NCBI GenBank assembly: GCA_965216315.1
Contig: CBDCFN010000016.1
Coordinates: 1,184,001-1,248,000, forward strand
Source: a bacterium
GTDB taxonomy: Bacteria > UBA10199 > 2-02-FULL-50-16 > JAJFLM01
Length of the DNA stretch: 64,000 nucleotides
Reading direction: 5' to 3'
Position numbers and translations under genes: made by a program. Within the stretch, counting starts at the first letter, position 1; each line of letters begins with the position of its first letter. The notes under the pieces are model-generated. The model searched no databases. It saw only the letters and a list, made by a program, of their open reading frames with translations, and was not told the DNA's origin. Below, piece by piece: positions 10,142 to 34,872 of this stretch.

Positions 10142-10663
10142 ATGGAGCTAACTCAACTAAAAGAAAAAATTCGCGATATTCCGGATTTTCCGAAACCCGG
10201 CATTGTCTTTAAAGATATTACGCCTCTGCTGGCCGATGTGGAGTCTTTTCAATCGGTGATTGATACATTTGCAAAACGTTACAGTGATAAAGGCGTTGAT
10301 GCGGTTGTCGGCGTTGAAGCGCGTGGGTTTATTTTTGGCAGTGCCTTAGCCTATCGGATCGATGCCGGTTTTATCCCGGTCCGTAAAAGCGGTAAATTGC
10401 CTCACCACACGCATCATGTGGAATATGCCCTCGAATATGGGACCGATAAAGTCGAAATGCACATCGACGCGCTCGAACCGCATCATCGTGTCGTGGTGAT
10501 CGATGACTTGCTGGCGACGGGTGGGACGGTCAAGGCCACCTGTGACCTCATCGAGAAGTTCGATTCTGAAATCATTGAATGCGGTTTTGTGGTCGAATTA
10601 GGCTTTCTCAACGGCCGCGAGCAACTCAAGGGTCGGGAGCTCTTTTCTTTAATCCAATATTAG
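10142..10663 (+). CDS. apt: adenine phosphoribosyltransferase
   Basis: IPDFPKPGIVFKDITPLL, VEARGF, VIDDLLATGGT. Confidence 0.96.
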   Translation: MELTQLKEKIRDIPDFPKPGIVFKDITPLLADVESFQSVIDTFAKRYSDKGVDAVVGVEARGFIFGSALAYRIDAGFIPVRKSGKLPHHTHHVEYALEYGTDKVEMHIDALEPHHRVVVIDDLLATGGTVKATCDLIEKFDSEIIECGFVVELGFLNGREQLKGRELFSLIQY

Positions 10664-19724: not shown

Positions 19725-20629
19725 TGAAAAAGGACCTGTTAACACTGTGGGATCTGGAGGCGGAAGAAATACTCTCCATCGTCGATGATGCGGTGACGGA
19801 GAAGGAATGTCCGACCGCCGATCAACCGCTCGCCGGCAAGACCTTGGCCCTCGTCTTTGAGAAGTCCTCTACGCGCACCAAAGTCAGTTTTACCGTCGCG
19901 GCGCAGCAACTAGGCGCCGGCGTCGTGAGTTTGGATCAACAAAGCAGCCAACTCGGTCGTGGGGAGACCCATGCCGATACGGGCCGGGTCTTGAGTCAAT
20001 ATGTCGATGGCATTGTGCTCAGGACCTTTGCGCAGCGCAATCTCGAAGAGCTTGCCGCGGCTGCGAGCGTGCCCGTGATCAATGGTCTCTCTGATGCCTA
20101 TCACCCTTGCCAAGTCCTTGCCGACCTTGCGACGGTTCAAGAAAACTTTGGTGAGTTAAAGGATATTCGCTTTGCCTGGGTTGGGGATGGCAACAATATG
20201 ACCCATAGCTGGATTGTCGCGGCGGCCAAGTTAGGGCTTGAGCTGCAGATTGCCACTCCGAAGGGCCGGGAGCCGGCCGCGGATGTCGTCAAACGAGCCG
20301 GTGAGTTGACGGACAAAATCCATATCGGTACGGACCCGGTGGCAGCGGTCAAGGGGGCTCACGTGATTAATGCGGATACCTGGGTGAGTATGGGGCAGGA
20401 AGATGAGGCCGAAGCGGTAGCGGTCTTTGAACCGTATCAGGTAAACGCGGCGCTTTTGAAGCACGCGACGGATAGTGCCATCGTATTACATTGCTTGCCG
20501 GCTCACCGGGGCGAGGAAATCACCGATGAGGTGATGGACGGGCCGCAATCACGTATCTGGCAGCAGGCCCAGTATCGCCTGCATGCCCAAAAGATTATTT
20601 TGAAACGTTTTATGGGGGATAGGACTTAA
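19724..20629 (+). CDS. argF: ornithine carbamoyltransferase
   Basis: SSTRTK, HPCQVLAD, WVSMG, HCLPAHRG. Confidence 0.96.
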   Translation: MKKDLLTLWDLEAEEILSIVDDAVTEKECPTADQPLAGKTLALVFEKSSTRTKVSFTVAAQQLGAGVVSLDQQSSQLGRGETHADTGRVLSQYVDGIVLRTFAQRNLEELAAAASVPVINGLSDAYHPCQVLADLATVQENFGELKDIRFAWVGDGNNMTHSWIVAAAKLGLELQIATPKGREPAADVVKRAGELTDKIHIGTDPVAAVKGAHVINADTWVSMGQEDEAEAVAVFEPYQVNAALLKHATDSAIVLHCLPAHRGEEITDEVMDGPQSRIWQQAQYRLHAQKIILKRFMGDRT

Positions 20630-20630
20630 T

Positions 20631-21836
20631 ATGGCTGCGAAGAAGAAAATTGTTGTCGCCTATTCGGGCGGGCTGGATACCTCGATTATAATTCGCTGGT
20701 TGATCGAAGAGTATGACTTTGATGTCATCGCGTACATTGCCGACCTCGGGCAGGAAGAACCACTCCAGCAGATCAAGCAAAAGGCCCTCAAGACCGGGGC
20801 CTCCAAGGCCATTATCTCCGATCTCCGCGAAGAATTCGTCAAAGATTACGTCTGGCCCATGCTGCGCGGCAACGCGCGCTATCAAGATACCTACTTGCTG
20901 GGCACCTCGATTGCGCGGCCGATCATCGCGAAGGAACATGTGCGGATCGCTAAGAAAGAGAAGGCGGCCTATGTGTGTCACGGTGCGACCGGTAAGGGGA
21001 ACGACCAGATTCGCTTTGAGCTGACCTATTATGCCTTGGCTCCAAAGATACAAGTTATTGCGCCGTGGAGAGAATGGTCTTTTGAAGGGCGCCAAGATCT
21101 TATCGACTATGCCAAGAAGCATGGCATTCCGGTACCGGTCTCCAAGAAGAAGCCCTATAGTATGGACCGGAATCTCCTTCACCTGAGTTTTGAGGGGGGG
21201 ATCTTAGAAGATCCTTGGGCGGCGCCGCCGGAGGATATGTTTGTTTTGACCCAGTCGCCGCAAAAAGCCCCGGCGAAACCCCAGGATCTGACCCTTGAGT
21301 TCAAGAAGGGTGATGTCGTCAAGATTAACGGCAAGGCGGGGACGCCTGCGCAGTTGTTGCAGCGCCTTAATAAGGTGGCCGGCAAGCACGGCGTGGGGCG
21401 GGTCGACATGGTCGAGGATCGCTTCACGGGCATGAAGAGCCGCGGGGTCTATGAAACCCCCGGCGGGACCGTCATTCACGTCGCCCGCGGGGCCCTGGAA
21501 TCGATCACGCTCGATCGGGAGGTCCGGCAGATTCTGCTGAGTACGATGCCTCATTATGCCGAGGCCGTGTATAACGGGTTTTGGTTCGCGCCGGAACGCG
21601 AGTTGATGCAGGAAATGATCGATAGTGCCCAATCCGCCGTTACCGGCTCGGTGCGGGTGCGGCTTTATAAAGGGAGCTGTACTGTGCTCGGGCGGAAGGC
21701 GCCGAAGTCGCTGTTTAGTAAGGAGTATGCGACTTTTGAGAGTGATAAGGTTTATAAGCAGAATGATGCTGAGGGGTTTATTAAGCTGAATGCCCTGAGG
21801 TTGAAACTGCAGGCGATGGTTAGACCGAGGCGGTAG
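20631..21836 (+). CDS. argG: argininosuccinate synthase
   Basis: [29 protein letters not shown]. Confidence 0.97.
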   Translation: MAAKKKIVVAYSGGLDTSIIIRWLIEEYDFDVIAYIADLGQEEPLQQIKQKALKTGASKAIISDLREEFVKDYVWPMLRGNARYQDTYLLGTSIARPIIAKEHVRIAKKEKAAYVCHGATGKGNDQIRFELTYYALAPKIQVIAPWREWSFEGRQDLIDYAKKHGIPVPVSKKKPYSMDRNLLHLSFEGGILEDPWAAPPEDMFVLTQSPQKAPAKPQDLTLEFKKGDVVKINGKAGTPAQLLQRLNKVAGKHGVGRVDMVEDRFTGMKSRGVYETPGGTVIHVARGALESITLDREVRQILLSTMPHYAEAVYNGFWFAPERELMQEMIDSAQSAVTGSVRVRLYKGSCTVLGRKAPKSLFSKEYATFESDKVYKQNDAEGFIKLNALRLKLQAMVRPRR

Positions 21837-21846
21837 GGGAGAGTTT

Positions 21847-22497
21847 CTAGTTTTCTTTGCATGATTGCGGTTTAATTTTACGGGACGGAGTAAACTCTAC
21901 CGTTGTGCCCTTTTTACATTTGATACCTTGAATAATCTCATCTTCGGCAAGTAGTGCTCTTTGTATTGACTCTGTGTGGGAATAATATGTTGCGGATCCT
22001 TTCACAATTCTGATTCCCTGCGCTCTTACAACCCCATCAGGTAATGTCTCACATGATTGCTCTATAAGCTTACCGTTTTCGTCAAAATCGATATACACTG
22101 AAGCGGGACAGTTAACATCGTGAATCAACATATCACTGCGTAGAATAACGTCTTTAAGTTTTCCGTTTTCACGAAAATTGATTCTTGTAGCCTTTGGGAA
22201 GTTTAGCCCCTGCACCATCATCTGATTTGCGATCATGGCATGTTTTATATTTCCATTTTCATAGAAATATACTCTACTGCCTTTTGGAACAGTAAGTCCC
22301 TGTATTACCATGCGATCGGTGGGTTCAAGTTGATCAATATTCCCGTTTTCGTAAAAACACGCGTATTGACCCTTTGACAGTTTAAAACCCTGAACAAGTT
22401 GATCTTCACTCAAATAACTGCAATTGGGCCTGGAATCGTCAAGAAACATACTGCAACCCGCCCCTATTAATGCGATTATTAGAACCAGTATTTTCAT
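21847..22497 (-). CDS. hypothetical lipoprotein with MORN/YwqK-like FYENG repeats
   Basis: lipobox GAGC; ~23 aa repeats (FYENGNI, FRENGKL, FDENGKL); AT-rich. Confidence 0.7.
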   Translation of the reverse strand: MKILVLIIALIGAGCSMFLDDSRPNCSYLSEDQLVQGFKLSKGQYACFYENGNIDQLEPTDRMVIQGLTVPKGSRVYFYENGNIKHAMIANQMMVQGLNFPKATRINFRENGKLKDVILRSDMLIHDVNCPASVYIDFDENGKLIEQSCETLPDGVVRAQGIRIVKGSATYYSHTESIQRALLAEDEIIQGIKCKKGTTVEFTPSRKIKPQSCKEN

Positions 22498-22647
22498 ATG
22501 CTAGCCTGCAACGTTGCCCTGCAGATATATAAGTTGATGGTTCAAAAGTATCTGTTTCTGAAACACTGATTGTAGCGAGATTGGCGCCTGAAATCACTGA
22601 GAAAAGACACACAAGCAATTCACAATACGGAGAAGAGCTTGCATGAG

Positions 22648-22671
22648 GACACAAGACGGAGCTGAGCTCCC
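22648..22671 (+). repeat. RAYT-associated repeat copy
   Basis: GACACAAGACGGAGCTGAGCTCCC, preceded by degenerate partial copies at ~22603-22640. Confidence 0.85.
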
Positions 22672-23085
22672 TTTACCGGGATGAAGAGTCGCGGGGTCTA
22701 TGAAACACCCGGTGGAACGGTTATTCATAGTGCCCGTTGTGCGCTTGAATCGATCACCCTCGATCGGGAAGTCAGGCAGATCCTGCTGAGTACTATGCCT
22801 CATTATGCAGAGGCCGTGTATAATGGGTTTTGGTTTGCTCCGGAGCGGGAGTTGTTGCAGGAAATGATTGATAGTGCTCAGGAAGCCGTTACTGGCTCGG
22901 TGCGGGTGCGGCTGTATAAAGGGAGTTGTACCGTCTTAGGGCGGAAGGCGCCGAAGTCGCTGTTTAGTAAGGAGTATGCGACTTTTGAGAGTGATAAGGT
23001 TTATAAGCAGAATGATGCCGAGGGCTTTATCAAGCTCAACGCTTTGAGGCTGAAGTTGCAAGCGATGGTTCGACCGAGGCGGTAG
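22671..23085 (+). pseudogene. argG: diverged duplicate of the argG 3' third (134 codons from ATG 22681)
   Basis: matches 21422-21836 with 4 amino acid changes and many synonymous changes; begins right at the repeat. Confidence 0.93.
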
Positions 23086-23122
23086 GGGGTGGGTTAGGAG
23101 CTAGACTGTGAATTAGTTCATA

Positions 23123-24316
23123 TTAGGTGTGATTCTCAAGTTGAGTAATAGTGAACCTCAGTCTAGCTAACAAATCATCATATGTAATGATATCAACGAT
23201 ATTCTTATATTTTCTCTTTATGACCTCGAAGTCTTGCTTTTGTTCTGACTTCAGATTTTCATCCCTCCCCATCACGATGATTCCACTCGGATTCGTGATC
23301 TTGATGCTGAAGCCGTCTGGTAGCCTATCTTGATATCGCTCAGATAGGGTCATTTCACCTGCTCGTCCCCATTTGTTTAGGTAGAAAATGTACTTCTCAA
23401 TCTGCATTACCGTACCGGAGAGTTCCCGTAGTGGGATGTAGTTATCTCTATATTGACTATTGGTGACAATGCATTTATCAAATGGTTGTTTGATTTCCAC
23501 TATGTCAGTATTGCCCGACGAATCCACCAAGAGAAAATCCAATTCTCTAGTTTTTTGATTGTAGGTATCCCTAATCTTCGCTGATTTGAATACCCTTATG
23601 TATTTAGGGTAAAGCAAAAGAATAATTTGCACTATCTGATCCTGCCATTGCGCCTCACTGTACGTATTCTCATTATTCAGCATGTCAGTAAGTTTTTTTT
23701 GTAGTAATGTGTATTTGATAATTTCATTGTCCTTAAATATTTCTATGAGATCTTCTCCTGTGTTCACGATTTTTTTATTCAGGTACTGGTGATATTTCTT
23801 TTCACCGTCGTATTTAGTCTCAAAGTAATCTCTGATAATAGCGCTGACTCTTGCTTCAACGTATAATCTCAATTCGTAAGTATTCGGAAAGTACTTGATG
23901 AGCAGATTAAAATCCTCTTCTGGTATGCTATCAGGGTGGTTGCCTCCAATGCGAATCAACTTTGCTCCTAAAGCGCTCACCTTGGAAAAAATTGATACAT
24001 TTTTTTCAGCAGTAAATGATCGATAGGTAAGAGGAATATCTTGGTGGATCCATAAATCGAATTCGATTGAAAGAATTCTTCTATGTATTAGGAAGTATTC
24101 ACCATGCTTTTTTCCAATATTGAACTCAACAGGTATATCTGGATTAGGCGTTACTTCTGTGCTTGATCCGTACAGATCTTCTTTTGTGACGTGAAATGTG
24201 TTCTTTAGACATACTGTCTCATCATTATTAAGTCTCCGGTATAGCCAATCGTTATCGCTATTCGTAGTGTCGTATTCTAATACCAGAGAATCATTGACTT
24301 TTTCGAACTCAAGCAC
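23123..24316 (-). CDS. Shedu-like (DUF4263) anti-phage nuclease
   Basis: C-terminal E..WQ, DFLLVD..G..DIVEIKQP, ELSGTVMQIEKY, IITYDDLL motifs. Confidence 0.8.
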   Translation of the reverse strand: MLEFEKVNDSLVLEYDTTNSDNDWLYRRLNNDETVCLKNTFHVTKEDLYGSSTEVTPNPDIPVEFNIGKKHGEYFLIHRRILSIEFDLWIHQDIPLTYRSFTAEKNVSIFSKVSALGAKLIRIGGNHPDSIPEEDFNLLIKYFPNTYELRLYVEARVSAIIRDYFETKYDGEKKYHQYLNKKIVNTGEDLIEIFKDNEIIKYTLLQKKLTDMLNNENTYSEAQWQDQIVQIILLLYPKYIRVFKSAKIRDTYNQKTRELDFLLVDSSGNTDIVEIKQPFDKCIVTNSQYRDNYIPLRELSGTVMQIEKYIFYLNKWGRAGEMTLSERYQDRLPDGFSIKITNPSGIIVMGRDENLKSEQKQDFEVIKRKYKNIVDIITYDDLLARLRFTITQLENHT

Positions 24317-24403
24317 GGTAATTAATGAACCTCGAGGACGTAACTATTCGTTAGTATGGTTGTTTCTTTCTTATAGCGCAAGCATTTCACAGCAAAGCAG
24401 GAT

Positions 24404-24424
24404 GACACAAGGTGGAGGTGCGAA
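24404..24424 (+). repeat. RAYT-associated repeat copy (GT variant)
   Basis: GACACAAGGTGGAGGTGCGAA. Confidence 0.75.
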
Positions 24425-24674
24425 TAGGTTACCTTGCTCTGGCCCTCTAAATAATTACTCTCCAGCCGAAGAAGTAAATTTTTTTCTAATCTCCGACTAA
24501 TTTTATTCAAATTAAAGGCATGCGCCAAGCGTTATTGAATAGCGCTTGGCGGGGGGTGGATAAATTTTCGCCATGTGAAGGCGATGTGCTCGTTTGTTAG
24601 TTCTTTTAGCGCAACATGATTTAATATATTCTGTCGAAACGACGTCCTAATCGACGAATAAACTTACAAATGAC

Positions 24675-26531
24675 ATGGCAAGAAACGTTAATGATGCATA
24701 TAAATCCCAAAACAGATGGCGTGCTGTATTAGATCATACTGAAGGAACCCTTGTTGTAAACGCTGGTCCTGGTACAGGAAAGACATTTAGCTTGTTGAGA
24801 AAAATTGAGCAGCTTCTTAATGATGGTACAGATCCGGATAAGATATATTATCTCACATTTGTGAATAGCATCGTTGATGCATTTAAAGCAGATGTTGCGA
24901 AAGCTGAGGCGAATGGTGGACTTGGGAGAGACGCTGATGAATTAGGAATAAGAATCTCAACACTGCACAGTTTAGGCTTTAAGGTTGTTAAAGCTTATGC
25001 AGCCAAGCTAGGGCTCTCAGAGCATATCGAGGTTGTTGAAGCTTCTAAAAAGCCGGTTCGAATTATTTCGAAGCTGTTTGTTTCAGATCTATATTTTTTA
25101 GCTAAAGATGACGGCGTAGTTTCAGACAAGAGAGGATTTAAAACGGCGTTGTTAAGGCTGCAGAAAGCTTGGCAAAGTGGGAATGCAGTACCAATAGAAT
25201 TGCAAGGGCTAGATGAACTTGTAGATAAGCTAAGTCGGAAGTATGAAGCGCTTTCGTGGGACCATTTGGTGCTGCTAGCAAATCAGGCTATTGAATCCTA
25301 CGGATTGCCCAAATGGCTCAAGGATGCAGAACATTTTATGATTGATGAATACCAAGACTTTAATCCGGCAGAGCAACGTTTGATTGATTTGGTTACTGAA
25401 CCTTCGGATTCTGTTGTCATCGTAGGGGATATGGACCAAAGTATTTATAGCGGTAGATCCGCTTCTCCGCAGGGACTACAAGAATTGCTAGAGCACAATC
25501 ATGTATCTACGGTCAACTTCGTGTATTGCCGCAGATGTCCGATAAAAGTAATTGAAGCGGCAAACCGTATGCTGGAACTTATGGATCCTAACAATTTCCA
25601 AGATAGAGCCTTGCAGGCGTTTAAAGGAGAAGAGGGGTTGCTACATATAAGCCATGTTAGGAGTTGCAAAGCAGAACTAGATTTGATCGCGGCTGAGATC
25701 AAGGAACATCTATCTAATGGCACGACAGATATAGCTATCTTGATGCCGGGTAGAAAAGGTATGGACTATTACAGGGATAAGCTGAAAGAGCGGGGCATTA
25801 ACTGTGTTATTCATAAGACTGGCAATGAGGAGCGGGAAATGTTGTCTGTATACCTGCGATTAGCTATTCTGAAGGAACAAGCTCTACTTGAACGAGTCTT
25901 GCTGAGTACGTTTCCAGCTCTCGAGAGGAGATTTCAAAGGGATGTGCTGCCTCGAATGATCATGCAGGATCTTTCGATTGTCGAAGCTCTGAGAGCTGCA
26001 GAGCTAGAAGTGGGGAGCGGGTGGCGTAATGATGTCCGTCAAGCTCTTCAGAAGTTCGAAGAAGAGCTGAAACTAATTAGGTCTCAAGATTCAAATAAAT
26101 TATCGGTATTCCTAAAAGAAAAGGGATGGGAGGTTCCAGAAGACCAATTGAAGGAAATATTAGATGATGAGCATGATGCATGGACCGTTGCAGAGCGAGT
26201 TGATATGATAATTAAGCAGCTCGATCATAATAAGGATGAAGAAGAAACATCCGATGCTACTGTACAATTACTCACGATGCATAGTTCCAAAGGGCTTTCC
26301 AAAAGTGTGGTAATTATGCCAGCTCTTGAAGACAAGTGGATACCAGCTAGATCAGTTGGTGAGGCTCTGAAAGAAAAGCATCGATTATTTTATGTAGCGC
26401 TGACAAGATCGGAAGAATGTATGATTATTACTTATCCCAGGACTCGAGCGAGAGGTGATCCTTTAAACCATACCCCACAGGGGGCTAATGAAGGTCCATC
26501 ACGATATTTGGAGACAATCGATAATATATAG
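24675..26531 (+). CDS. UvrD/Rep-like SF1 helicase
   Basis: AGPGTGKT, ISTLHS, IDEYQD, VGDMDQSIY, TMHSSKGL, RLFYVALTR. Confidence 0.9.
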   Translation: MARNVNDAYKSQNRWRAVLDHTEGTLVVNAGPGTGKTFSLLRKIEQLLNDGTDPDKIYYLTFVNSIVDAFKADVAKAEANGGLGRDADELGIRISTLHSLGFKVVKAYAAKLGLSEHIEVVEASKKPVRIISKLFVSDLYFLAKDDGVVSDKRGFKTALLRLQKAWQSGNAVPIELQGLDELVDKLSRKYEALSWDHLVLLANQAIESYGLPKWLKDAEHFMIDEYQDFNPAEQRLIDLVTEPSDSVVIVGDMDQSIYSGRSASPQGLQELLEHNHVSTVNFVYCRRCPIKVIEAANRMLELMDPNNFQDRALQAFKGEEGLLHISHVRSCKAELDLIAAEIKEHLSNGTTDIAILMPGRKGMDYYRDKLKERGINCVIHKTGNEEREMLSVYLRLAILKEQALLERVLLSTFPALERRFQRDVLPRMIMQDLSIVEALRAAELEVGSGWRNDVRQALQKFEEELKLIRSQDSNKLSVFLKEKGWEVPEDQLKEILDDEHDAWTVAERVDMIIKQLDHNKDEEETSDATVQLLTMHSSKGLSKSVVIMPALEDKWIPARSVGEALKEKHRLFYVALTRSEECMIITYPRTRARGDPLNHTPQGANEGPSRYLETIDNI

Positions 26532-26562
26532 AGGTGCTTTTAAATCTTAAGGAGGGTTATCG

Positions 26563-27381
26563 ATGAAGGTTTTCATAGGATGGTCACATGAAGTCAGCCA
26601 TAAGATGGCGTTGGCAATACACGAATGGTTTCCCAACGTAATTCAGTCTATTGAACCTTATGTATCATCTGAGGATATTTCTAAGGGCAGTCACTGGTTT
26701 TCGGATGTATGTGACAATTTAGATCAAGCTGATTTTGGAATCATATGTCTTACTCCTGATAATGTAAATGAGCCATGGATTCTATTTGAGGCAGGCGCGT
26801 TAGGTACGAAATTTGGGAGATCAAAGGTTTGCCCATTATTGTGGCGTATATCTGCTACCGACCTTAAAGGTCCATTGTCACATTTTCAATCATGTGCATT
26901 AAATGCAGATGATATGTTACGACTTGTCGGTGATATAAATAAGCAATTAAATTCGAGTATATCAGATGAAAGGCTCGTCAGTACATTCGAACTATGGTGG
27001 CCAAAATTAGAAGAGAAATTGTCTTCTATTCATGAAACAGCCCCGCTTGATTCTTCATCAGGGAAAAGTAGAGGTGACAGAGATCTATTAGAGGAAGTTC
27101 TCCAGCGAGTTCGTGCATTGAAGAATAGCATGGATAGAAGATTCAATGCCGCGAGTAACGTAAATGTTTATGAATGCCATCAAGATAATGCTAAGCCCCG
27201 TGAAGGTTCTGAAGGCATTGAACTTCTTCAGGGTCAGTTGGATAATTTTGAACGGAATTTTATTGGAAGAATTTTAAAAAGTAATAAATTCAACTTAGAT
27301 TTAGCTGCCAGAACGTTAGGAATTCATAGGAAGACGCTAGAGTATAAGATGAAGAGACTGGATATAGACATGCCAAACTAG
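26563..27381 (+). CDS. TIR-domain protein with C-terminal Fis-type helix-turn-helix
   Basis: MKVFIGWS, GIICLT, PWILFEAGAL (TIR); FER..I..IL.....N...AARTLGIHRKTLEYKMKR (HTH_8). Confidence 0.85.
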   Translation: MKVFIGWSHEVSHKMALAIHEWFPNVIQSIEPYVSSEDISKGSHWFSDVCDNLDQADFGIICLTPDNVNEPWILFEAGALGTKFGRSKVCPLLWRISATDLKGPLSHFQSCALNADDMLRLVGDINKQLNSSISDERLVSTFELWWPKLEEKLSSIHETAPLDSSSGKSRGDRDLLEEVLQRVRALKNSMDRRFNAASNVNVYECHQDNAKPREGSEGIELLQGQLDNFERNFIGRILKSNKFNLDLAARTLGIHRKTLEYKMKRLDIDMPN

Positions 27382-27398
27382 GAGAATCAAAAAAAGAA

Positions 27399-27422
27399 GG
27401 CACAAGACGGAGGTAAGCTCCC
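27399..27422 (+). repeat. RAYT-associated repeat copy
   Basis: GGCACAAGACGGAGGTAAGCTCCC, 17 bp after the TIR gene stop. Confidence 0.85.
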
Positions 27423-27569
27423 TTTTAGGTGTAGTCGGGGATAAGACTCCAAAAATAAGACTCACCCAGTAGCGATAATTTGCACTTCACGCGGCTAGTG
27501 CTAGAGATTAAAATATGTGACGACTTGATGAAACATATAATCTACACATGACAATGATTTCGGTAAACT

Positions 27570-28460
27570 GTGATGAATGAACTGTGGTTGACAGCAAAAA
27601 ATATTATTTTTCAATGGGTGCTACCAATTGCTGGTTTTTTAGGTTTGATATATGGGTGGCGAAGCTACCGTATAGCTAAGCGGAGCCAAAAAAATAGGAA
27701 GTTGAAATTTGAATGTAATGAAAGAGCACTCGTTTTTTCAAGCAAACTTACTGAAAAGGATAGTGTTGATTTCAGACTCAACGGTGAAAGAGTTAGAAAT
27801 TTATATTTTCTTGAATTCACTATTACAAATATCGGCAATGAGGTCCTGTATGCTAAAGATTTTAGGGAGCCATTCCAAATTGAATTCCCGGGTGAGATAA
27901 ATATTTTCCCACTACGCATCGAACGCGATAAAAATGATATCAACATCACATACGACATTAAACCTGAAAGTACAAAGACGACGGTGACAATCAATACAGA
28001 ACTCGTGGAGCCGAAGGACAAAATCATCTTTACACTACTATATGAGGCTACGAAGTACGCTGGTTATGTGCCTGTCGTGCGGATAATAGATGGCAATTTG
28101 GAGAATGTTAGATCCGATTGGGGACGTGAGGAGTCCTCTGAAGACATCGAGGCGAGAATACGAAAGAAATATGAACGTCGTTCTAAGCTAGGTGACTTGC
28201 CGGTGATGATAATGACAGGTCTTTTTTGTGCGCTCATTGCGCTGCCAGTTTACATAATATATCCAGATTTTTTTGCGGATGATTATGAATATAGCATCAT
28301 TCGTAATATTATCATTGGTTGTGTTGCTCTGATTGTTCTAAGTGGCGTTATGAGGTATGCTTTGCGAAGTCACCAGAAATGGTTCAATGAATTTGTTAAT
28401 GAGAAGGTTGATGAAGCAAAACGCAGAAAATTTCTATTGCCACATGAAGGAGATAGGTAA
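27570..28460 (+). CDS. hypothetical membrane protein (1 N-terminal and 2 C-terminal TM segments)
   Basis: 296 aa AT-rich ORF; hydrophobic segments flank a beta-rich soluble domain. Confidence 0.75.
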   Translation: MMNELWLTAKNIIFQWVLPIAGFLGLIYGWRSYRIAKRSQKNRKLKFECNERALVFSSKLTEKDSVDFRLNGERVRNLYFLEFTITNIGNEVLYAKDFREPFQIEFPGEINIFPLRIERDKNDINITYDIKPESTKTTVTINTELVEPKDKIIFTLLYEATKYAGYVPVVRIIDGNLENVRSDWGREESSEDIEARIRKKYERRSKLGDLPVMIMTGLFCALIALPVYIIYPDFFADDYEYSIIRNIIIGCVALIVLSGVMRYALRSHQKWFNEFVNEKVDEAKRRKFLLPHEGDR

Positions 28461-28465
28461 GAAGA

Positions 28466-28557
28466 GACACAAGACGGAGGTGAGATCCCCTGGGGCACGA
28501 ACTGCGGGCTAGATTTCAGCTAATCTCGTGTGCCGTTTTCGTACCTCCACCTTGTGG
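28466..28557. mobile_element. miniature non-autonomous derivative of the RAYT element (left end joined to right end)
   Basis: starts GACACAAGACGGAGGTGAGATCCC, ends TTTTCGTACCTCCACCTTGTGG; interior resembles 28993-29031. Confidence 0.7.
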
Positions 28558-28612
28558 GCTGCCAATTTTCCCCTTGAGCTCCCCCGCATCCTCAACTAGT
28601 AAGACACAATAA

Positions 28613-28964
28613 GACACAAGACGGAGGTGAGCTCCCATGGCGCACGAAATTCGGACTAGATTACAGCGGATTTGGTTTACGGATTATTGCTTCTGTTAGT
28701 TTTCGACGATGATGGTGCTGGTTTGGGCCGGATCGCTACTTTAATGCCGAGATTGGATCGTCAGCCGGCCATTAAAGCGCATTCACGATATAGCTGTGCG
28801 CCATTTTCTTAAAACTGAATTGTATGAGCTGGTTTAGTTTTCTTTATGGGACATTTTCACCAAAGCGTAGGGCATGACGCTCTTTCCAGTCGGCATACTG
28901 ATCCTTGCGAATCTCTTTGATTTCCCGTGTCTTCCAATTGACCCAATTTGGGTTACCAATGAAG
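28613..28964 (-). pseudogene. diverged tandem copy of the RAYT element left end including the last ~40 transposase codons
   Basis: colinear with 28969-29324; starts with the repeat and is cut off just before the next repeat copy. Confidence 0.9.
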
Positions 28965-29203
28965 AAAAGACACAAGACGGAGGTAAGTTCCCCTAGCGCA
29001 CGAGATTCGGACTAGATTTCATAGGATCTCGCTTACGGATTGTTACTTCTGTTAATTTTACGGCAATGATGGGTTTGGTTTGGGGCGGATTACTATTTTA
29101 ATGCCAAGATTTGCTCATTATTCAGCCATTAAAGCGCATCCAAGGTATAGCTGTCCGCTGGTTTTCTAAAAACTGAATTGTATGAACTGATTTATTTTTT
29201 TCT

Positions 29204-29917
29204 TTAGGGGACATTCCCACCAAAGCGGAGGGCATGTCGCTCTTTCCAGTCGGCATACTGATCCTTGCGAATCTCTTTGAGCTCCCGAGTCTTCCAATTA
29301 ACCCAATTTGGGTTACCAATGAAGCACGTGCTTGAATACGGTTTCTTTTCCTTCCAGTCGTTCTTAAGGATTTCTTGAATCATCGCGAGGTATGCTGCCT
29401 GTCGGCGTTGAGGCGTGGAGCTTAGTGTGAGATAAGATGGGGCTGGGGTGATGAGGGGGTCAGCTGTACCGTAGGCATAGTAGCCGAAAGATGAGTATTC
29501 GTTGTGTCGGGGATGCTTGACCTTGTAGGCCCGTTTGGGATTGAGGTCGATGTAGAGCATGACCTTGAGTAAATCACGATCTGTTTGAATACTCGGGGAT
29601 TTAAATCGATCCATGACTACCTGGCCGCGTCTTTGGACTTGCTTGTTGTAGGCCTTGGCAAAGCATGCGTTTACGACACGGAAGAAATCAGAGAAGGTTT
29701 CTAACTCCTCCATACGTCCAGACAAATGGATATGATTATCCATGAGACAGTACGAGTAGATCTGCACTGAGTATCGGTCCTTATATTTTAGTAACAGCTG
29801 ATAGTAGAGCTCCTTGGCCCAGCATTCTTTGAGGAGCCAGGACTTATTATGGCACTGCCACGTGACGTGGAAGGTGGATTCCTCTTCGAGGATGGCACGG
29901 CGGGGGAGTGAAGGCAT
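29204..29917 (-). CDS. REP-associated tyrosine transposase (Y1/HUH, RAYT)
   Basis: FHVTWQCHN, YCLMDNHIHL (HUH), RRGQVVMDRFKS, YIDLNP (catalytic Tyr), EYSSF. Confidence 0.88.
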   Translation of the reverse strand: MPSLPRRAILEEESTFHVTWQCHNKSWLLKECWAKELYYQLLLKYKDRYSVQIYSYCLMDNHIHLSGRMEELETFSDFFRVVNACFAKAYNKQVQRRGQVVMDRFKSPSIQTDRDLLKVMLYIDLNPKRAYKVKHPRHNEYSSFGYYAYGTADPLITPAPSYLTLSSTPQRRQAAYLAMIQEILKNDWKEKKPYSSTCFIGNPNWVNWKTRELKEIRKDQYADWKERHALRFGGNVP

Positions 29918-29930
29918 TAGAACTGCATAG

Positions 29931-29946
29931 AGCAAGGACTGTGCCA
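29931..29946 (-). promoter_or_regulatory. sigma54 -24/-12 promoter upstream of the RAYT gene
   Basis: minus strand TGGCAC-AGTCC-TTGCT. Confidence 0.6.
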
Positions 29947-30125
29947 AGATGGCATTCGATAAAAAATAGGTAGTTAGCGTTTATTGGGACCAGGGAAGGG
30001 TTTCAAGTTGAGACGCGCGAGTCTCGTTTTCGTACCTCCGTCTTGTGGCCATTGTGGCCATTTCTCCACCTTGCGGAACTGCCAATTTTCCCCTTGAGCT
30101 CCCCCGCATTCTCGACTAGCACTAA

Positions 30126-30524
30126 GTGACTATCAAAACCCCACCCTCACAACTAAGCACCCTCAACCACATCGCCCTCAAGGTCCGCGATCTTGCGGCC
30201 TGCACCGACTTCTATCACGGCATCCTTGGCCTGGAGCTCATCGAAAGGCAACAAAATGAGACCGGGGCCGAGCGAGCCGTTTGGTTTCGATTGGCGGACG
30301 GCATCCTCATGCTGGAAAGACAGGAGGAGGGGACTAAGGCTTCGATAGCGTCCGAAGCCGGCTGGCATTTGCTCGCGTTGACGATTCCGGAGACGTCACG
30401 TGACCAATGGAAAGACTACTTAAGCAGTCATGATATCTCGATCGCGCAGGAGAGCGCGTATTCGCTTTATTTTCGGGACCCCGAAGGCAATCGCGTGGCG
30501 TTGTCGCATTTTGCCTCAGCATGA
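30126..30524 (+). CDS. VOC/glyoxalase family protein
   Basis: LNHIALKVRDL..FYHGILGL, WHLLAL, SLYFRDPEGNRVAL. Confidence 0.9.
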   Translation: MTIKTPPSQLSTLNHIALKVRDLAACTDFYHGILGLELIERQQNETGAERAVWFRLADGILMLERQEEGTKASIASEAGWHLLALTIPETSRDQWKDYLSSHDISIAQESAYSLYFRDPEGNRVALSHFASA

Positions 30525-30525
30525 A

Positions 30526-30571
30526 GAGATAAGCCGGAGGTGAACTCCTTTTTGGAGGCTAACTTGTGGCC
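30526..30571. repeat. degenerate RAYT-associated repeat plus right-end remnant
   Basis: GAGATAAGCCGGAGGTGAACTCC ... CTTGTGGCC immediately after the VOC stop. Confidence 0.5.
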
Positions 30572-30574
30572 CTC

Positions 30575-31255
30575 TCATTTCATTAAACGCTGATCCTTAA
30601 GTCGATAAAGCGTTCTCTTTTCTTTCTGTGGGCGGATGAACTCTTTTAGCTGCGCTGGAGACATATCGATTTTAGCCGGACATTGCCCAGGAAAATCACG
30701 GATAAAATTTCGCTCTGGAACGTTAACAACGTTAAGATGCGATCTATCGGAATCGGATGCCATAACCATGCGAGGCACCTCTACAGTACTGCTTGATGGT
30801 GAGGTTTCCGAATTGTCCGTTTCTGTAGTTAGTTCGATGCGGTTAAAGGGTATGATGAATTGGCCTTCTTCCGTGATAATGGGAGACGTACTGAAACAAG
30901 AATGGTAGTTTTCACATAGGCAATTAAAAATCTGTTCAGAGAATGTTGCGTGAAGTCTTTCAAGACACATATTAAAGTATGCGACACGGCTTTCAGTCGT
31001 GTTTAGGCGGGCGATTTCTCTGTGGCAGTCCAGCATTCTTTGATAGCCGTCGGCGCCAATGACGCACCTCTCTGCAGACGCCCCTTTTTCCATACATTGC
31101 TCACGGTCCTTTCGCATAGCTTCAATGATGCTGGGCATTTCCAGCGGGGTGAGCCTTTTCAGATCTGGGCCTTGCGTTGGCGGAGCGGCTTGGCTCAAGG
31201 GGATAAAGGTAAGGCTTAGTAGGGCGGCAATAAATAGGGTTAGGGTGGTTCGCAT
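30575..31255 (-). CDS. hypothetical secreted Cys-containing protein
   Basis: signal peptide MRTTLTLFIAALLSLTFIPLSQA, RBS CAGGAG. Confidence 0.75.
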   Translation of the reverse strand: MRTTLTLFIAALLSLTFIPLSQAAPPTQGPDLKRLTPLEMPSIIEAMRKDREQCMEKGASAERCVIGADGYQRMLDCHREIARLNTTESRVAYFNMCLERLHATFSEQIFNCLCENYHSCFSTSPIITEEGQFIIPFNRIELTTETDNSETSPSSSTVEVPRMVMASDSDRSHLNVVNVPERNFIRDFPGQCPAKIDMSPAQLKEFIRPQKEKRTLYRLKDQRLMK

Positions 31256-31310
31256 CGGGGACTCCTGTTTGAAAGTTTTTGTGCTTACGGCTTTATAAGG
31301 GATTAGGTTG

Positions 31311-31374
31311 TGCAAATATTGTACCAAGAGTCGTGTAGCTAAATAAAAATAAATTCAGTAATATCAATAGCTTA
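31311..31374 (-). promoter_or_regulatory. sigma54 promoter with adjacent IHF site
   Basis: minus strand TGGTAC-AATAT-TTGCA (31311-31326); TATCAATAGCTTA (31362-31374) fits WATCAANNNNTTR. Confidence 0.6.
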
Positions 31375-31775
31375 TTGAGTAATTGATTAACATGGTTGTT
31401 ATCATTCTGATAATATTATCATTATGAGAAATAACTATTAAGGCGCGAGCCGGCGGTGCAGTCCCCTGGGGGCGAACTGCCAGCGGAGCGACCGGGGGAA
31501 ACAATGCGCGGCAATCTCAGCCCCAGGCTCAACCCGATACCTCAACTCATTCCTTTACGGCGGATACCTTGCTCCAGGGTATGATGCAGGTCGGTGGCGT
31601 GGATGTCGTTGGCGCCTTGGGTCCCGCTATGAGCTGAGCGTTGTGTCATGCGCGTTGGATCTGTCTTCGTCTTCTTGAAATTAACATCACTCTGCGATAT
31701 CTTCTCCCGCTAACGTGAGGCGGTCCGCACGATGAGCGCCGCCATCTAAGTCATCAAATAACGAGGGAGAGTCTC

Positions 31776-32144
31776 ATGGCAGAGCAAAAGAAAATATGTA
31801 TCGTCATCACCTCAGGAATGACCGATGAACGTTCGTCAGTCGCGTGGAGCATGGCCAACGGCGCCATCACGGCGGGGCTGGACGTGTCGGTATTTCTGGC
31901 CAGCGCCGGCATTGATTGGGTGCGAAAAGGCGCCGCCGACAAAGTGTGTTTGAACCCGCTTGATCCTCCGATGAAAGAGATGATCGACAAGGTGGTGAAC
32001 TCAGGCTGTCACATCGGGGTGTGTCCGCCCTGTACCGCGGTGAGAGGCTACGAACAAGCCGACCTGATCGATGGGATTGAAATCGTGGGGGCCTCGGCCA
32101 TTTGGAACCGCGTCAAAGAGGGTGCGGTCATTTTAAGTTACTAA
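31776..32144 (+). CDS. DsrE/DsrF-family protein
   Basis: VSVFLASAGIDWV, VCPPCTAVRGY, GIEIVGA. Confidence 0.8.
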   Translation: MAEQKKICIVITSGMTDERSSVAWSMANGAITAGLDVSVFLASAGIDWVRKGAADKVCLNPLDPPMKEMIDKVVNSGCHIGVCPPCTAVRGYEQADLIDGIEIVGASAIWNRVKEGAVILSY

Positions 32145-32169
32145 GGCAATTAAAAGGGCCGCTTAATCG

Positions 32170-33633
32170 CTAATACCGGATCAGCGAACAGCCACCGCTA
32201 CTCGCTTCGTCGCCGGTCCCACCGTCACCCGTCGGCGTGCAGACGGAGGGCTCGCCGGTACAGTCAAAGTCCGCCTCCACTTGGCACGTGGCATCGCAGC
32301 CGTCACCCGCTGCGGTGTTGCCATCATCACAGACTTCCCCGGCGTTGGTGTTGATTGAGCCGTCGCCACAGGCCGTGACCTCGTCGGCACCCATGTCGGG
32401 GGCGGAGCCGAGCGTACGCGGGTCACCGTCAATATCTTCAGTCGGAAGTTCAGGTGCGGCCGGATCTCCCTGGTCGATGAGCGGCGAGGTACTCTGGAGG
32501 TGCAAGTCTCCCGCGCTGGCATCGACAAAAAGCGGGTCAACATCGAGATTATTCATTGAGCTGATGGTCGAGGTGCAGCTTCCACTGTTACAGTCTTCCG
32601 AGAGATCTGAATAATTATTATTATGTATCGTGACGGTATTACCGATATTATTCGCATCATCGTCGCTGTTGAAAATGTCAATGTCGCCACCGGAAGTTGT
32701 GGCCGTATTTCCCCAGGCGATATTATTATAAATGTCGATATGTTGACTGTCGGCAGTGCTGAACGCTCTTAATCCGCCACCGAGATTGGAACTATTGTCG
32801 TGAACCGTATTGTGCGTGAACACTGCCGTTCCACCGGTCCCGAATAACATACCGGCCAATCCGCCACTGCTATTGTCGGCCGAATTTCCAAAGGCGATAT
32901 TATTGATTAGCGTCGCCGAGCCGGTATCGAAGGTGAGCATACCGGCCCCTCCGCCGTTATTGCCGGCATGGTTGCCATCAAAGATATTATTTTCAAGTGT
33001 TACCGAGCCGCTTGCGAAGCCAAGAAAAGCAGCTCCGCCACCGTTATTGTCGGCATCATTGCTCACGAAGTTATTGTGGCGGATAATTCCGGCGCCATCA
33101 TTGGTCAGCACGCCGAGGCCCCCGCCGTTATTGGTGGCTTTGCCGCCGGTGAAGCTACAGTGTTCAACTGTGACTGGCGCCTGCGTGGTGCCGATCAGTA
33201 AATTGCCACCATTGTTGGCTCCGCTGCCATCAACAAAGGAAATATGACGCACGGTGGTACTAGCCGCAGAATCATCAGATAGGCCGGACGTTATAATGCT
33301 CAGTCCTCTCGCGAGCATTCCGCCGTCGATTATCGTCTGACCGACGCCGGCCCCTTCGATGGTCAAGGCAAAGTTTTCTTCCGACAAGGCGGTCGCATCA
33401 GCGAGATAGCTGAAAGTTGCACCCGACGCATCGTAAGTCCCCGCCGCGATATTGATCGTATCCGCCTCGTCATTATCTTGTGCTGCGGTGAGGGCGGATT
33501 GCAGATCGCAGTCGTTATCCGTGCAGTCATTATCCGAAGTTTCAGTGACCGTAAAAGTCGCTGCGTGGGACGGAATGGCTGCCCATGCCATGACGGCACA
33601 ACCGAAAAAAAACGTTGCGATAAGTTTAAGCAT
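32170..33633 (-). CDS. secreted beta-helix protein with choice-of-anchor-Q-like segment, myxobacterial Cys-rich repeat and GGCSL C-terminus
   Basis: signal peptide; NNGGG repeats; DPLFVD..DLHLQSTSPLID..PDMGADE; CGDG..EVCDDGN..GDGCDATC. Confidence 0.8.
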   Translation of the reverse strand: MLKLIATFFFGCAVMAWAAIPSHAATFTVTETSDNDCTDNDCDLQSALTAAQDNDEADTINIAAGTYDASGATFSYLADATALSEENFALTIEGAGVGQTIIDGGMLARGLSIITSGLSDDSAASTTVRHISFVDGSGANNGGNLLIGTTQAPVTVEHCSFTGGKATNNGGGLGVLTNDGAGIIRHNNFVSNDADNNGGGAAFLGFASGSVTLENNIFDGNHAGNNGGGAGMLTFDTGSATLINNIAFGNSADNSSGGLAGMLFGTGGTAVFTHNTVHDNSSNLGGGLRAFSTADSQHIDIYNNIAWGNTATTSGGDIDIFNSDDDANNIGNTVTIHNNNYSDLSEDCNSGSCTSTISSMNNLDVDPLFVDASAGDLHLQSTSPLIDQGDPAAPELPTEDIDGDPRTLGSAPDMGADEVTACGDGSINTNAGEVCDDGNTAAGDGCDATCQVEADFDCTGEPSVCTPTGDGGTGDEASSGGCSLIRY

Positions 33634-33777: not shown

Positions 33778-34872
33778 ATGACCGAAAAACGCGTCTATAA
33801 TTTCTCTGCCGGGCCCGCGACGCTGCCGCTGCCCGTGCTCAAACAAGCCCAAGAGGAATTTCTTTCCTATCAGGGCAGTGGGATGTCGGTCATTGAGATG
33901 AGCCATCGTTCCAGTTGGATTAGTGAGGTCTTTGAGCGGGCGGAGCAGAACCTGAGAACTCTCCTCAAGGTTCCGGATGACTATGATGTCTTGTTTCTGC
34001 AGGGCGGGGCGCGCCTGCAGTTCGCGATGATCCCGATGAACTTCTTAAACGACGGGCAGTCCGCGGATTACATCCTGACCGGGTCGTGGGGGAAGTATGC
34101 GCTCAAAGAAGCCAAGGGGATCGGCAAGGTCCGTCTGGCGTGGAGTGGCGAAGAAGACAATTTTAATCGGGTGCCGGCCGATGACGAACTGGATCTCGAT
34201 AAACAAGCGGCCTACGTGCATTACACCTCCAATGAAACGATTCAGGGCGTTGAATTCAGTACGGAACCTGCCTGTGCGGATGTGCCGTTGGTCTGTGACA
34301 TGTCCTCCGATTTTATCTCGCGACCGATCGATGTAAGCAAATACTCCCTGATCTACTCCGGAGCGCAAAAGAATGCCGGTCCGGCCGGCGTGACGATGGT
34401 CATCTTGAGAAAAGAACTCAAGGATCGCATTAAGGACGGCCTGCCGCAGATGCTCGACTATCGCGTCCATGCGGAGAAAAAATCGCTCTACAACACGCCG
34501 CCGGTCTTTTCCGTCTACATCGTCAGCCTCGTGACGCAATGGCTCTTAGATGAATTTGGTGGCCTTGATAAGGTCCAGGAGTTCAATCGAAAGAAGGCGG
34601 ATCTACTCTATAAGGTGATCGATGCGAGTGGCGGCTTTTATCGCGGGCACGCGGTCGAAGAAAGCCGTTCGCTGATGAACGTCGCCTGGCGTCTGCCGAG
34701 TGAAGAGTTGGAGCAACAATTCATCGCGGAAGCGAAGGCGGTCGACCTGCTCGAACTCAAGGGTCATCGGTCGGTCGGGGGCATTCGGGCCTCGATCTAT
34801 AATGCGATGCCGCTGGAAGGGGTTCAGGCCCTGACGGCTTTCATGCAGGCGTTCCAGCAAAAGAACGGCTAG
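33778..34872 (+). CDS. serC: phosphoserine aminotransferase
   Basis: YNFSAGPA, EMSHRS, LQGGA, GAQKNAGPAG, GHRSVGGIRASIYNA. Confidence 0.97.
   Translation: MTEKRVYNFSAGPATLPLPVLKQAQEEFLSYQGSGMSVIEMSHRSSWISEVFERAEQNLRTLLKVPDDYDVLFLQGGARLQFAMIPMNFLNDGQSADYILTGSWGKYALKEAKGIGKVRLAWSGEEDNFNRVPADDELDLDKQAAYVHYTSNETIQGVEFSTEPACADVPLVCDMSSDFISRPIDVSKYSLIYSGAQKNAGPAGVTMVILRKELKDRIKDGLPQMLDYRVHAEKKSLYNTPPVFSVYIVSLVTQWLLDEFGGLDKVQEFNRKKADLLYKVIDASGGFYRGHAVEESRSLMNVAWRLPSEELEQQFIAEAKAVDLLELKGHRSVGGIRASIYNAMPLEGVQALTAFMQAFQQKNG

Follow-up and report, generated by a model that had tools for sequence, protein, structure and literature searches.

What does a short repeated sequence, standing between the defence and accessory genes of a bacterial genomic island, have to do with the transposase gene in its midst? 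The stretch of DNA analysed here (the window, 64,000 nucleotides, G000:C16:1184001-1248000 of an assembly of 2.96 Mb in 16 contigs) carries such an island directly downstream of argG. The initial annotation had taken the locus for an integron-like array of gene cassettes, stacked at a fixed place by a RAYT transposase that would use a non-palindromic repeat as its strand-transfer site. The comparisons set out below lead to a different identification, in which the repeat is the terminal inverted repeat (TIR) of the RAYT-like element itself and no new kind of site, and the island is most likely a defence and accessory island at a hotspot that this element has colonised.

The repeat is about 30 nt long, with the core CACAAGRYGGAGGT, and has eight significant copies in the whole genome, every one of them inside 22650-30047. 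When up to two mismatches are allowed, the core occurs 11 times in the window, where chance would give 1.03 (maximum 3 over 100 shuffles); eight of these matches lie at 22650, 24406, 27401, 28468, 28543 (minus strand), 28615, 28971 and 30034 (minus strand). At up to one mismatch the genome holds 13 matches, compared with 3 for a control pattern, and the island contains all seven exact genomic matches together with one that has a single mismatch. A profile built from the eight copies recovers precisely those eight (E<=0.002), the next-best match in the genome reaching E=0.81. Pattern counts and profile both confirm the direct and inverted copies that had been reported. The repeat is confined to the RAYT locus and stands between gene modules: all eight copies fall within 7.4 kb around the sole intact transposase gene copy of the genome, and several rearrangement junctions end at the repeat. 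Every copy is intergenic. A further site near 30526 (R8, 30517-30548, plus strand), described from the outset as degenerate, overlaps the stop codon of a VOC gene and is scored at E=28 by the eight-copy profile, yet it aligns with R1 without gaps, and its local score against R4 was equalled by one of 2584 random window stretches; it is probably a genuine but decayed ninth copy.

In sequence terms, the repeat consists of a purine-rich tag, AAGACGGAGG, and a weak hairpin after it, and together these make up the transposon's end of about 30 nt. Solo ends stand between gene blocks. R1 (22640-22675, plus strand; profile E=7.8e-6) is of the gene-distal end type and joins a displaced 3' end of argG at a common TTTA. 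R3 (27391-27426, plus strand; E=4.2e-6), whose core begins 20 nt past the stop codon of a TIR-domain gene, has the same short form as R1, unlike the end of the intact element. R2 (24396-24430, plus strand; E=8e-4) has the variant core GT and a 3' flank like the gene-proximal end type, identical at 18 of 19 positions to the inverted copy of the mini element described below. The term non-palindromic is apt for solo copies, which fold weakly (z about -0.3), but not for doublets in relatives, one of which, in genome G041, forms a near-perfect hairpin (-42.4 kcal/mol, z -14). Other identities of the repeat were considered and rejected: no known RNA family matched at E<=0.1, no tRNA or tmRNA was found that would make it a tRNA-type attachment site, and the island has 11 terminator-like sites against 11.3 expected, which speaks against a terminator family. 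A metagenome scan with a 22-nt extended repeat gave no matches in the scanned set, outside which near-identical records may fall. Elsewhere in the same genome, at C16:1699762-1703944 (L001 5762-9944), two weak repeat-like matches at 1699762 and 1703918, which represent the two end types and share a strand, lie on either side of a single 1260-aa ORF for an M4 (thermolysin-like) peptidase in a stretch slightly low in GC; with profile E values of 0.87 and 7.1, they are too weak to be counted as a second repeat locus.

The copies nearest the transposase gene define the element. The intact mobile unit (28970-30047, minus strand) is 1,078 bp long and consists of R6 (plus strand, 28971), the transposase gene and an inverted copy (minus strand, 30034); it is conserved in other genera, where similarity ends at the repeat edges. 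Three independent comparisons set its boundaries at the outer edges of both cores. A genome from another genus of the same family (G001:C219:1770-2844) has 79% nucleotide identity over window 28970-30046 and 86% protein identity, and beyond the unit its similarity to the island is limited to the displaced argG end and a 45-nt match near query 10460-10504. A metagenomic contig (L145; 98% amino-acid and 87.9% nucleotide identity) begins to match at 30047 and runs inward, and its 1106 bp upstream of the unit match nothing in the window's genome. Genome G031 holds five full-length copies, 67-68% identical to the window protein and by eye about 80% identical to one another in nucleotides, whose common part is only the stretch between AAGACGAAGGT and ACTCCGTCTT. 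The layout recurs among 34 metagenomic relatives (48-98% identity), 10 of which show, by a simple pattern, a plus-strand copy 120-150 bp upstream and a minus-strand copy 210-260 bp downstream of the gene; in 8 more the repeat lies on one side, several of these being cut by contig ends. In four more distant homologues, L035-L038, the inverted copies carry a variant core, GTGACGGAGG or TGACGAAGGT. The basic entity is therefore a unit of about 1.1 kb made up of an end, a gene and an inverted end. The repeat, which had been taken for a non-hairpin strand-transfer site, forms the inverted ends of this unit, at 28971 and 30034 in the window.

Within the window these ends occur in five forms, namely the inverted ends of the intact unit, a gene-less mini element, the end of a truncated older copy, tandem stutters and solo ends. 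The mini element (28458-28600, plus strand) consists of R4 (plus strand, 28468) and an inverted copy (minus strand, 28543), with the gene deleted and a 41-nt tail shared with 30079-30119. Its core part of 89 bp (28468-28556) is simply both ends joined without the gene, which revises its earlier listing as one more cargo unit, and its hairpin is imperfect (-16 kcal/mol, z -1.16). Adjoining it, at 28601-28964 (plus strand), are the stutter AAGACACAAT/AAGACACAAG, R5 and the truncated older copy, which retains the gene-distal end and the last 39 transposase codons; this stretch is 84.9% identical to 28967-29324, its 39-aa transposase fragment being 94.9% identical. At the other side of the intact unit, a stutter site (30041-30076) has a 9-bp tandem, TTGTGGCCA, and then a degenerate second inverted copy (30063-30076). 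Both stutters that had been noticed, at 28601 and 30043, are present in the sequence, and the latter is polymorphic in the population: among four runs of one study, with contigs at 3-6x depth, X1 and X2 have it and X3 and X4 do not. The three local duplications do break at the repeat, as first described, for each starts at a repeat copy, and their divergence (86.7% identity over 421 nt, 84.9% over 358 nt and 91.1% over 56 nt) marks them as real and old. Back-to-back copies or stutters at repeat edges are found in the window, G031 (a 19-bp tandem array), L145 (21 bp) and G041 (35-36 bp). In G031, at least 6-7 copies of the 19-bp unit AAGACGAAGGTTCGAAATT stand before the 5' end of the element and reach the contig ends (L018, G031:C35:16486-16610; G031:C19:15-120), an extreme form of such end stutter.

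The enzyme that these ends enclose (29204-29917, minus strand; 237 aa) was typed with Pfam, NCBIfam, motifs and Foldseek as a Y1 HUH transposase of the TIRYT/RAYT-like kind. Its match to Pfam Y1_Tnp (PF01797), 29.5 bits against a cut-off of 23 (E=8.7e-7), puts it in the Y1 HUH superfamily. Across 20 aligned family members the residues H62, H64, Y122, D124, L125 and N126 are invariant, as is the family-specific motif FH[VI]TWQCHN. The tyrosine motif YIDLNP is the class-2 signature Y-x-x-x-N-P, and the protein has the length of subclass 2.1 and a C-terminal extension with a conserved G-[ND]-P-x-W-V and further conserved C-terminal columns. The HuH motif of the family, NH[IP]H, is slightly unlike the NHVH and NH[YF]H listed by Quentin 2018. 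A single-sequence search of the PDB with the transposase gave no match, and a profile search gave 4ER8, the E. coli TnpA-REP, as sole match (E=0.28), with the HUH and tyrosine motifs both aligned. An AlphaFold model (pLDDT 82.3) has the same protein as top Foldseek match (4er8_A, E=2.1e-6, target TM 0.71, 160 columns), followed at ranks 2-28 by IS200, IS608 and ISDra2 transposases. The modelled fold is that of a Y1 HUH protein, with E. coli TnpA-REP as its closest counterpart.

Among described systems, TIRYTs are RAYT-like genes bordered by terminal inverted repeats ("TIRtrons"). Certain genomes have TIR families of moderate abundance, whose members stand alone, as dimers or in groups, and many TIRs carry a GGGGWSAS end motif (Di Nocera 2013, PMC3733652). 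TnpA-Y1 proteins of subclass 2.1, prevalent in epsilon-, beta- and delta-proteobacteria and equated with TIRYTs, have a median length of 238 aa, a C-terminal extension and no canonical REP (repetitive extragenic palindrome), and those of subclass 1.1 have a Y-x-x-x-Q motif, about 150 aa and no tail (Quentin 2018, PMC6006769). The element described here best fits the TIRYT or "TIRtron" kind, which has received little study since its description, its probable place in subclass 2.1 being judged by length and motifs. A RAYT-like Y1 HUH gene between non-GTAG terminal inverted repeats is what we see in the window, G001, G031, 10 of the 34 metagenomic loci and L035-L038; the length of about 238 aa, the C-terminal extension, the Y-x-x-x-N-P motif and a moderately sized end-repeat family, in which copies occur singly, as dimers and in groups, agree as well. 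The window end, however, is of the AAGACGGAGG type and not GGGGWSAS, and kb-spaced arrays in hypervariable islands, end-bounded cargo and links to defence were not found in those parts of the TIRYT descriptions on which we draw.

Two further systems lie close by. REPtrons share the closest solved fold (4ER8), a gene between inverted repeat copies and, as in G000, one intact gene copy, and G041 has REPIN-like doublets with long hairpins. The window differs in having no GT[AG]G tag (its tag is AAGACGGAGG), in an NCBIfam RAYT score below the cut-off of that model, in the five full-length copies of its relative G031, and in its 8-9 local copies, compared with the 57-140 genome-wide occurrences given for the 16-mers that flank classic RAYT groups (Bertels 2017, PMC5581495). 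With IS200/IS605 elements such as IS608 and ISDra2, the element has the catalytic fold and the HUH and tyrosine chemistry in common, whereas its Y-x-x-x-N-P motif, 237 aa, inverted end repeats and lack of tnpB differ from that family, whose ends are subterminal hairpins. By motif, length, inverted ends and the lack of near-identical multiple copies, it stands outside IS200/IS605.

Displaced pieces of the neighbouring core gene also lie beside repeat copies. The resident argG (20631-21836, plus strand; Pfam Arginosuc_synth and Arginosuc_syn_C) is followed in the island by a displaced or imported argG 3' end, argG' (22672-23088, plus strand), which begins at R1 and has 86.7% nucleotide identity to 21419-21839. 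Its amino-acid identity to the resident is 97%, and the 42 synonymous versus 4 non-synonymous codon differences, together with a GC3 of 0.585 versus 0.69, imply that argG' evolved as part of a functional argG in a related lineage before being imported. The initial annotation had recognised this fragment but missed a second one, argG'' (24462-24577, plus strand), which begins about 45 nt past R2 and comprises the last ~13 nt of argG (24462-24474) and a hairpin-containing spacer. It is 85% identical to the argG end and spacer of C11, a small contig of the same assembly that stems from a close strain, and it is regarded as a third argG-end remnant because C11 argG runs directly into its homologue. 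Pairwise identity among the three argG 3' alleles is 87-90%.

C11 also reveals what else can occupy this place. Over 3258 bp, its argD-argF-argG region shows 96.3% identity to the window, and past argG and the homologue of 24462-24577 it has 1.2 kb of unique low-GC DNA, where a DUF5343 protein and a Swt1-like HEPN protein (C11, L205, 1-1026) match the PADLOC candidate defence pair PDC-M34A/B (2.8e-47, 5.1e-14). Both strains coexist, because C11 alleles at 21392-21428 are minority variants in run X4. Coexisting strains hence hold different systems at one hotspot, in one case Shedu together with a GajB-like helicase and its TIR protein, in the other a PDC-M34-like candidate pair, and the gap between argG and a class-V aminotransferase gene is a strain-variable defence hotspot. 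In 200-nt bins, identity between window and C11 is mostly 97-100% as far as 21246, apart from two bins at 91-94%, and 86-89% from 21392 to the end of argG, so that the last ~440 nt of the resident gene are a divergent allele. Further patches in argF and argG, at 20798-21002 and 19999-20455, have 4-12% divergence amid 97-100% identity, and such patches are signs of frequent homologous exchange in the arg operon. The idea of a single fixed site-specific crossover target in argG was dropped, given that divergence begins at 21392, 35 nt before the start point of argG', and that other patches exist. The proposal of a fixed locus downstream of argG hence stands as a strain-variable hotspot, seen in G001 and C11, but the mosaic is one of homologous exchange. 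The cargo does differ between the strains, and the displaced argG ends lie at repeats, but the C11 cargo and the outer borders of the island are without repeats.

Beyond the window, two congeneric genomes of another family, G027 and G041, contain arrays of the repeat. Its short core AAGACGRAGGT has 28 matches in G027 and 40 in G041, compared with 4 per genome for a control pattern, and 18 of the 28 and 24 of the 40 lie within 25 kb of a family gene by a hand tally from the match lists. The arrays are about 10-35 kb long, stand beside homologous transposase genes and have copies at kb spacing, mostly in one orientation, including doublets about 53 bp apart. Their genes are small and accessory (RRM, VOC, GH46, GH114, PEBP, DUF6683 and DUF6585, many more being without a family), with VOC genes in both genomes. 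The arrays of the two genomes have just nine gene families in common, in scrambled order, and two of the common genes have the repeat at a homologous position in both species, decayed in one. One gene, F8, is present in both genomes as a block of repeat, gene and inverted repeat; the similarity stops at the edges of the repeats, and the neighbours differ. Over 26 blocks common to the two genomes, 13 of 104 ends fall within 30 nt of a repeat versus 5.0 expected (maximum 14 in 2000 trials). GC skew in these arrays is -0.04 to +0.05, a weak basis for relating repeat orientation to the direction of replication.

Further loci in these genomes are of interest in their own right. At L025 13558-16564 (G041:C48) and L028 11090-14486 (G027:C6), the next repeat downstream of the transposase gene lies 0.6-2.2 kb off with one to three extra ORFs between, including a VOC gene in G041, and these elements may carry passenger genes themselves. 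At L029 2215-3420 (G027:C1:666215-667420), five profile matches crowd into 1.2 kb around a 248-aa ORF without a family, with no transposase gene within the 5.5 kb examined. Among the 34 metagenomic loci, some of which span 12-20 kb, extra copies in addition to the two ends are few, and the exact core is absent from all nine genome-collection loci L031-L039 (8-20 kb each).

The island itself is larger than was first thought. In G001 (contig C319), argD-argF-argG is followed directly by a homologue of window 33778-34872, in a synteny that extends to 10 genes in total, and G003 and G005 are arranged similarly. Because argG of G001 directly adjoins this homologue, the insertion corresponds to 21837 to about 33777 (~11.9 kb, absent from the syntenic site of G001, end approximate) and not to 21837-30571 as had been proposed. 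GC content is 0.375-0.464 across 22-30 kb and 0.52-0.57 in the flanks. The earlier gene calls hold in Pfam, NCBIfam and PADLOC. They comprise a lipoprotein-like gene with MORN repeats (21847-22497, minus strand; MORN_2 2.9e-8), with only distant MORN proteins as homologues in 93 genomes of the class; the Shedu gene (SduA; 23123-24316, minus strand; SduA_C 1.4e-39, PADLOC SduA 2e-155); a UvrD-family, GajB-like helicase (24675-26531, plus strand; UvrD-helicase 1.6e-34, PADLOC GajB 1.5e-47); a TIR protein with a C-terminal Fis-type HTH (26563-27381, plus strand; HTH_8 and CAP12-PCTIR_TIR, PADLOC TIR-TM 7.3e-72 over residues 1-190); a membrane protein (27570-28460, plus strand) with no match in Pfam, NCBIfam or PADLOC, present in one of the 93 class genomes, the window's own; and the VOC/glyoxalase-family gene (30126-30524, plus strand; Glyoxalase 7.2e-12). 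The rest of the island (30575-33633) has a 250-aa ORF without a family, a DsrE-like gene and a DUF5123/DUF4215 protein, and no repeat copies. As had been stated, integrase, cas and reverse-transcriptase families are absent from the 11 main island ORFs scanned against Pfam. The TIR protein begins 32 nt past the GajB-like helicase (24675-27381) and carries its Fis-type HTH where the PADLOC TIR-TM model has a transmembrane part, and the two may form an undescribed two-gene defence pairing.

How, then, are element, repeat and cargo related? We lean, with confidence a little above even, towards a strain-variable island of defence and accessory genes that occupies a hotspot and has been colonised by a TIRtron, whose ends serve as predicted sites of nicking and rejoining, so that genes trapped between ends would move along with them. 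The observations from which this reading starts are the distribution of the repeat, the unit boundaries, the fold and motifs of the enzyme, the hotspot and the junctions at repeats. In the proposed mechanism, drawn from the analogy of solved Y1 enzymes, the Y1 enzyme would nick single-stranded DNA (ssDNA) at the outer edge of the repeat and rejoin ends, and new copies would land beside existing ends. Reuse of target sites by IS200/IS605 elements predicts just such insertion beside an existing end, with tandem copies. Landing beside old ends would explain why the mini, truncated and intact copies adjoin one another, and also the stutters that recur in four genomes. Any two usable ends could further carry the genes trapped between them, whereby cargo blocks and junctions would accumulate at repeat copies, and shuffling of modules via the repeat is plausible. 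Whole islands are also exchanged between strains by ordinary homologous recombination through argG.

Several findings weigh against this reading. Each cargo block of the window adjoins a repeat on just one side, these repeats being oriented alike, and none of the blocks is bounded by inverted repeats; the outer borders of the island have no copy by the eight-copy profile, nor does the 1.2 kb of alternative cargo in C11; and the mosaic between C11 and the resident argG starts upstream of argG' and has other patches. The F8 block is the only cleanly repeat-bounded cargo found, in a gene present in 2 of the 93 genomes, and the enrichment of block ends near repeats is modest and confounded, because block ends and repeats are both intergenic. 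For the enzyme itself, the NCBIfam model REP_Tyr_transpos gives 55.6 bits against a cut-off of 80, which places it outside the RAYT equivalog. Low-depth contigs gave no signal of cleavage, circles or excision: the five joints listed in the reads for circles or deletions have 20-28 letters on their shorter side, below 30, and none at a repeat edge, and they were not used as evidence. Nor was use made of run X3, in which some pieces, including R2, R3 and R4, are deeper and end near repeats, these data being from contigs only.

A more far-reaching version is put forward tentatively, and we hold it to be rather unlikely as it stands: TIRYT Y1 HUH enzymes would be the recombinases of an unrecognised gene-module system, in which end-delimited blocks are excised as ssDNA circles and re-inserted beside other ends. 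Re-insertion of this kind would build hypervariable arrays, and some units would bear a piece of a neighbouring core gene, here argG, that fixes them to their locus. If true, the outcome would parallel that of integrons, by HUH chemistry without a tyrosine or serine recombinase. Among the publications found, some of them judged by title or abstract, none links Y1 or HUH transposases to cassette arrays, and supplementary TIR lists might bear on this. Comparison of island DNA with other genomes gave matches only at argG', the transposase unit and a stretch of about 250 nt near query 10401-10652, and no window cassette has been observed in two contexts, because the window cargo genes were not found elsewhere.

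It is unlikely that the Y1 HUH enzyme is a dedicated cassette recombinase that cuts same-orientation repeats, releases ssDNA circles and stacks them downstream of argG in the manner of attC and attI, although much in the locus is reminiscent of integrons and CALINs. Seven same-orientation copies sit between gene blocks, three copies lie within 20 nt past a stop codon or overlap one, both displaced argG ends adjoin a repeat, and no integrase was found among the 11 island ORFs scanned. On the metagenomic contig L145, a 263-aa ORF upstream of the element lies exactly between two same-orientation copies. The arrays of G027 and G041, with their short repeats between small accessory genes, including VOC/glyoxalase-type genes and small genes of no family, are hypervariable among relatives and scrambled in order, as are those of integrons. 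A stacking system of this kind, however, would have a platform and a polarity, and neither is fixed: repeats lie 5' or 3' of genes, and arrays occur upstream or downstream of the transposase gene in either orientation to its nearest end (window, G027:C6, G041:C74, L145). Cargo genes are on both strands, in mixed orientation, the borders have no repeats, and the solo copies have no significant hairpin or attC-like palindrome. A tyrosine recombinase is lacking among the 11 ORFs, in contrast to integrons. The 10 plain units, the scarcity of extra copies among the 34 metagenomic relatives and the absence of the exact core from L031-L039 likewise tell against it, cargo genes of the window do not recur elsewhere, and homology, as seen in the mosaic, explains the fixation at argG at least equally well. 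The label integron-like was consequently given up.

The opposite extreme, that the repeats are passive debris in an island built by homologous recombination and other, unseen mobile elements, their coincidence with borders arising from both being intergenic, is improbable in our estimate. It would account for the intergenic position of all copies, for the weak and confounded enrichment of block ends, for the homologous exchange in the argG mosaic, for the repeat-free alternative cargo of C11 and outer borders, and it sits well with terminator-like sites that are not enriched in the island. Two non-homologous junctions, however, R1/argG' and R2/argG'', lie 0-45 nt from a repeat, and two such coincidences by chance are unlikely, by a post hoc estimate, because repeats cover a few percent of the island. 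Also against inert remains are the F8 similarity, which in two species stops at a repeat edge on either side of the gene, the short form common to R1 and R3, which points to related copies and not to independent truncations, and the edge stutters of four genomes, one of them polymorphic now. Finally, ISCR and IS91 elements, with an HUH enzyme, one-ended events and neighbour capture, would explain the pickup of an argG 3' end beside a repeat, but their enzymes are larger two-tyrosine (Y2) proteins of another HUH family with distinct ori and ter ends, and no gene of this type is among the 11 island ORFs scanned with Pfam.

The host role of RAYT and TIRYT enzymes has been a long-standing question since their first description. 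With the TIRtron reading in mind, this locus and the arrays of G027 and G041 offer material for testing whether such enzymes also mobilise foreign genes: a compact unit of 1,078 bp, a naturally occurring mini element of 89 bp, solo ends in one orientation that enclose cargo, and two junctions between a core-gene fragment and an end. If they do not, the gap downstream of argG still clearly exemplifies a defence hotspot at which each strain has systems of its own, one carrying Shedu and the GajB-like helicase plus TIR protein, the other a PDC-M34-like pair. If they do, it would mean an HUH-based route to the assembly of defence islands in an uncultured lineage.

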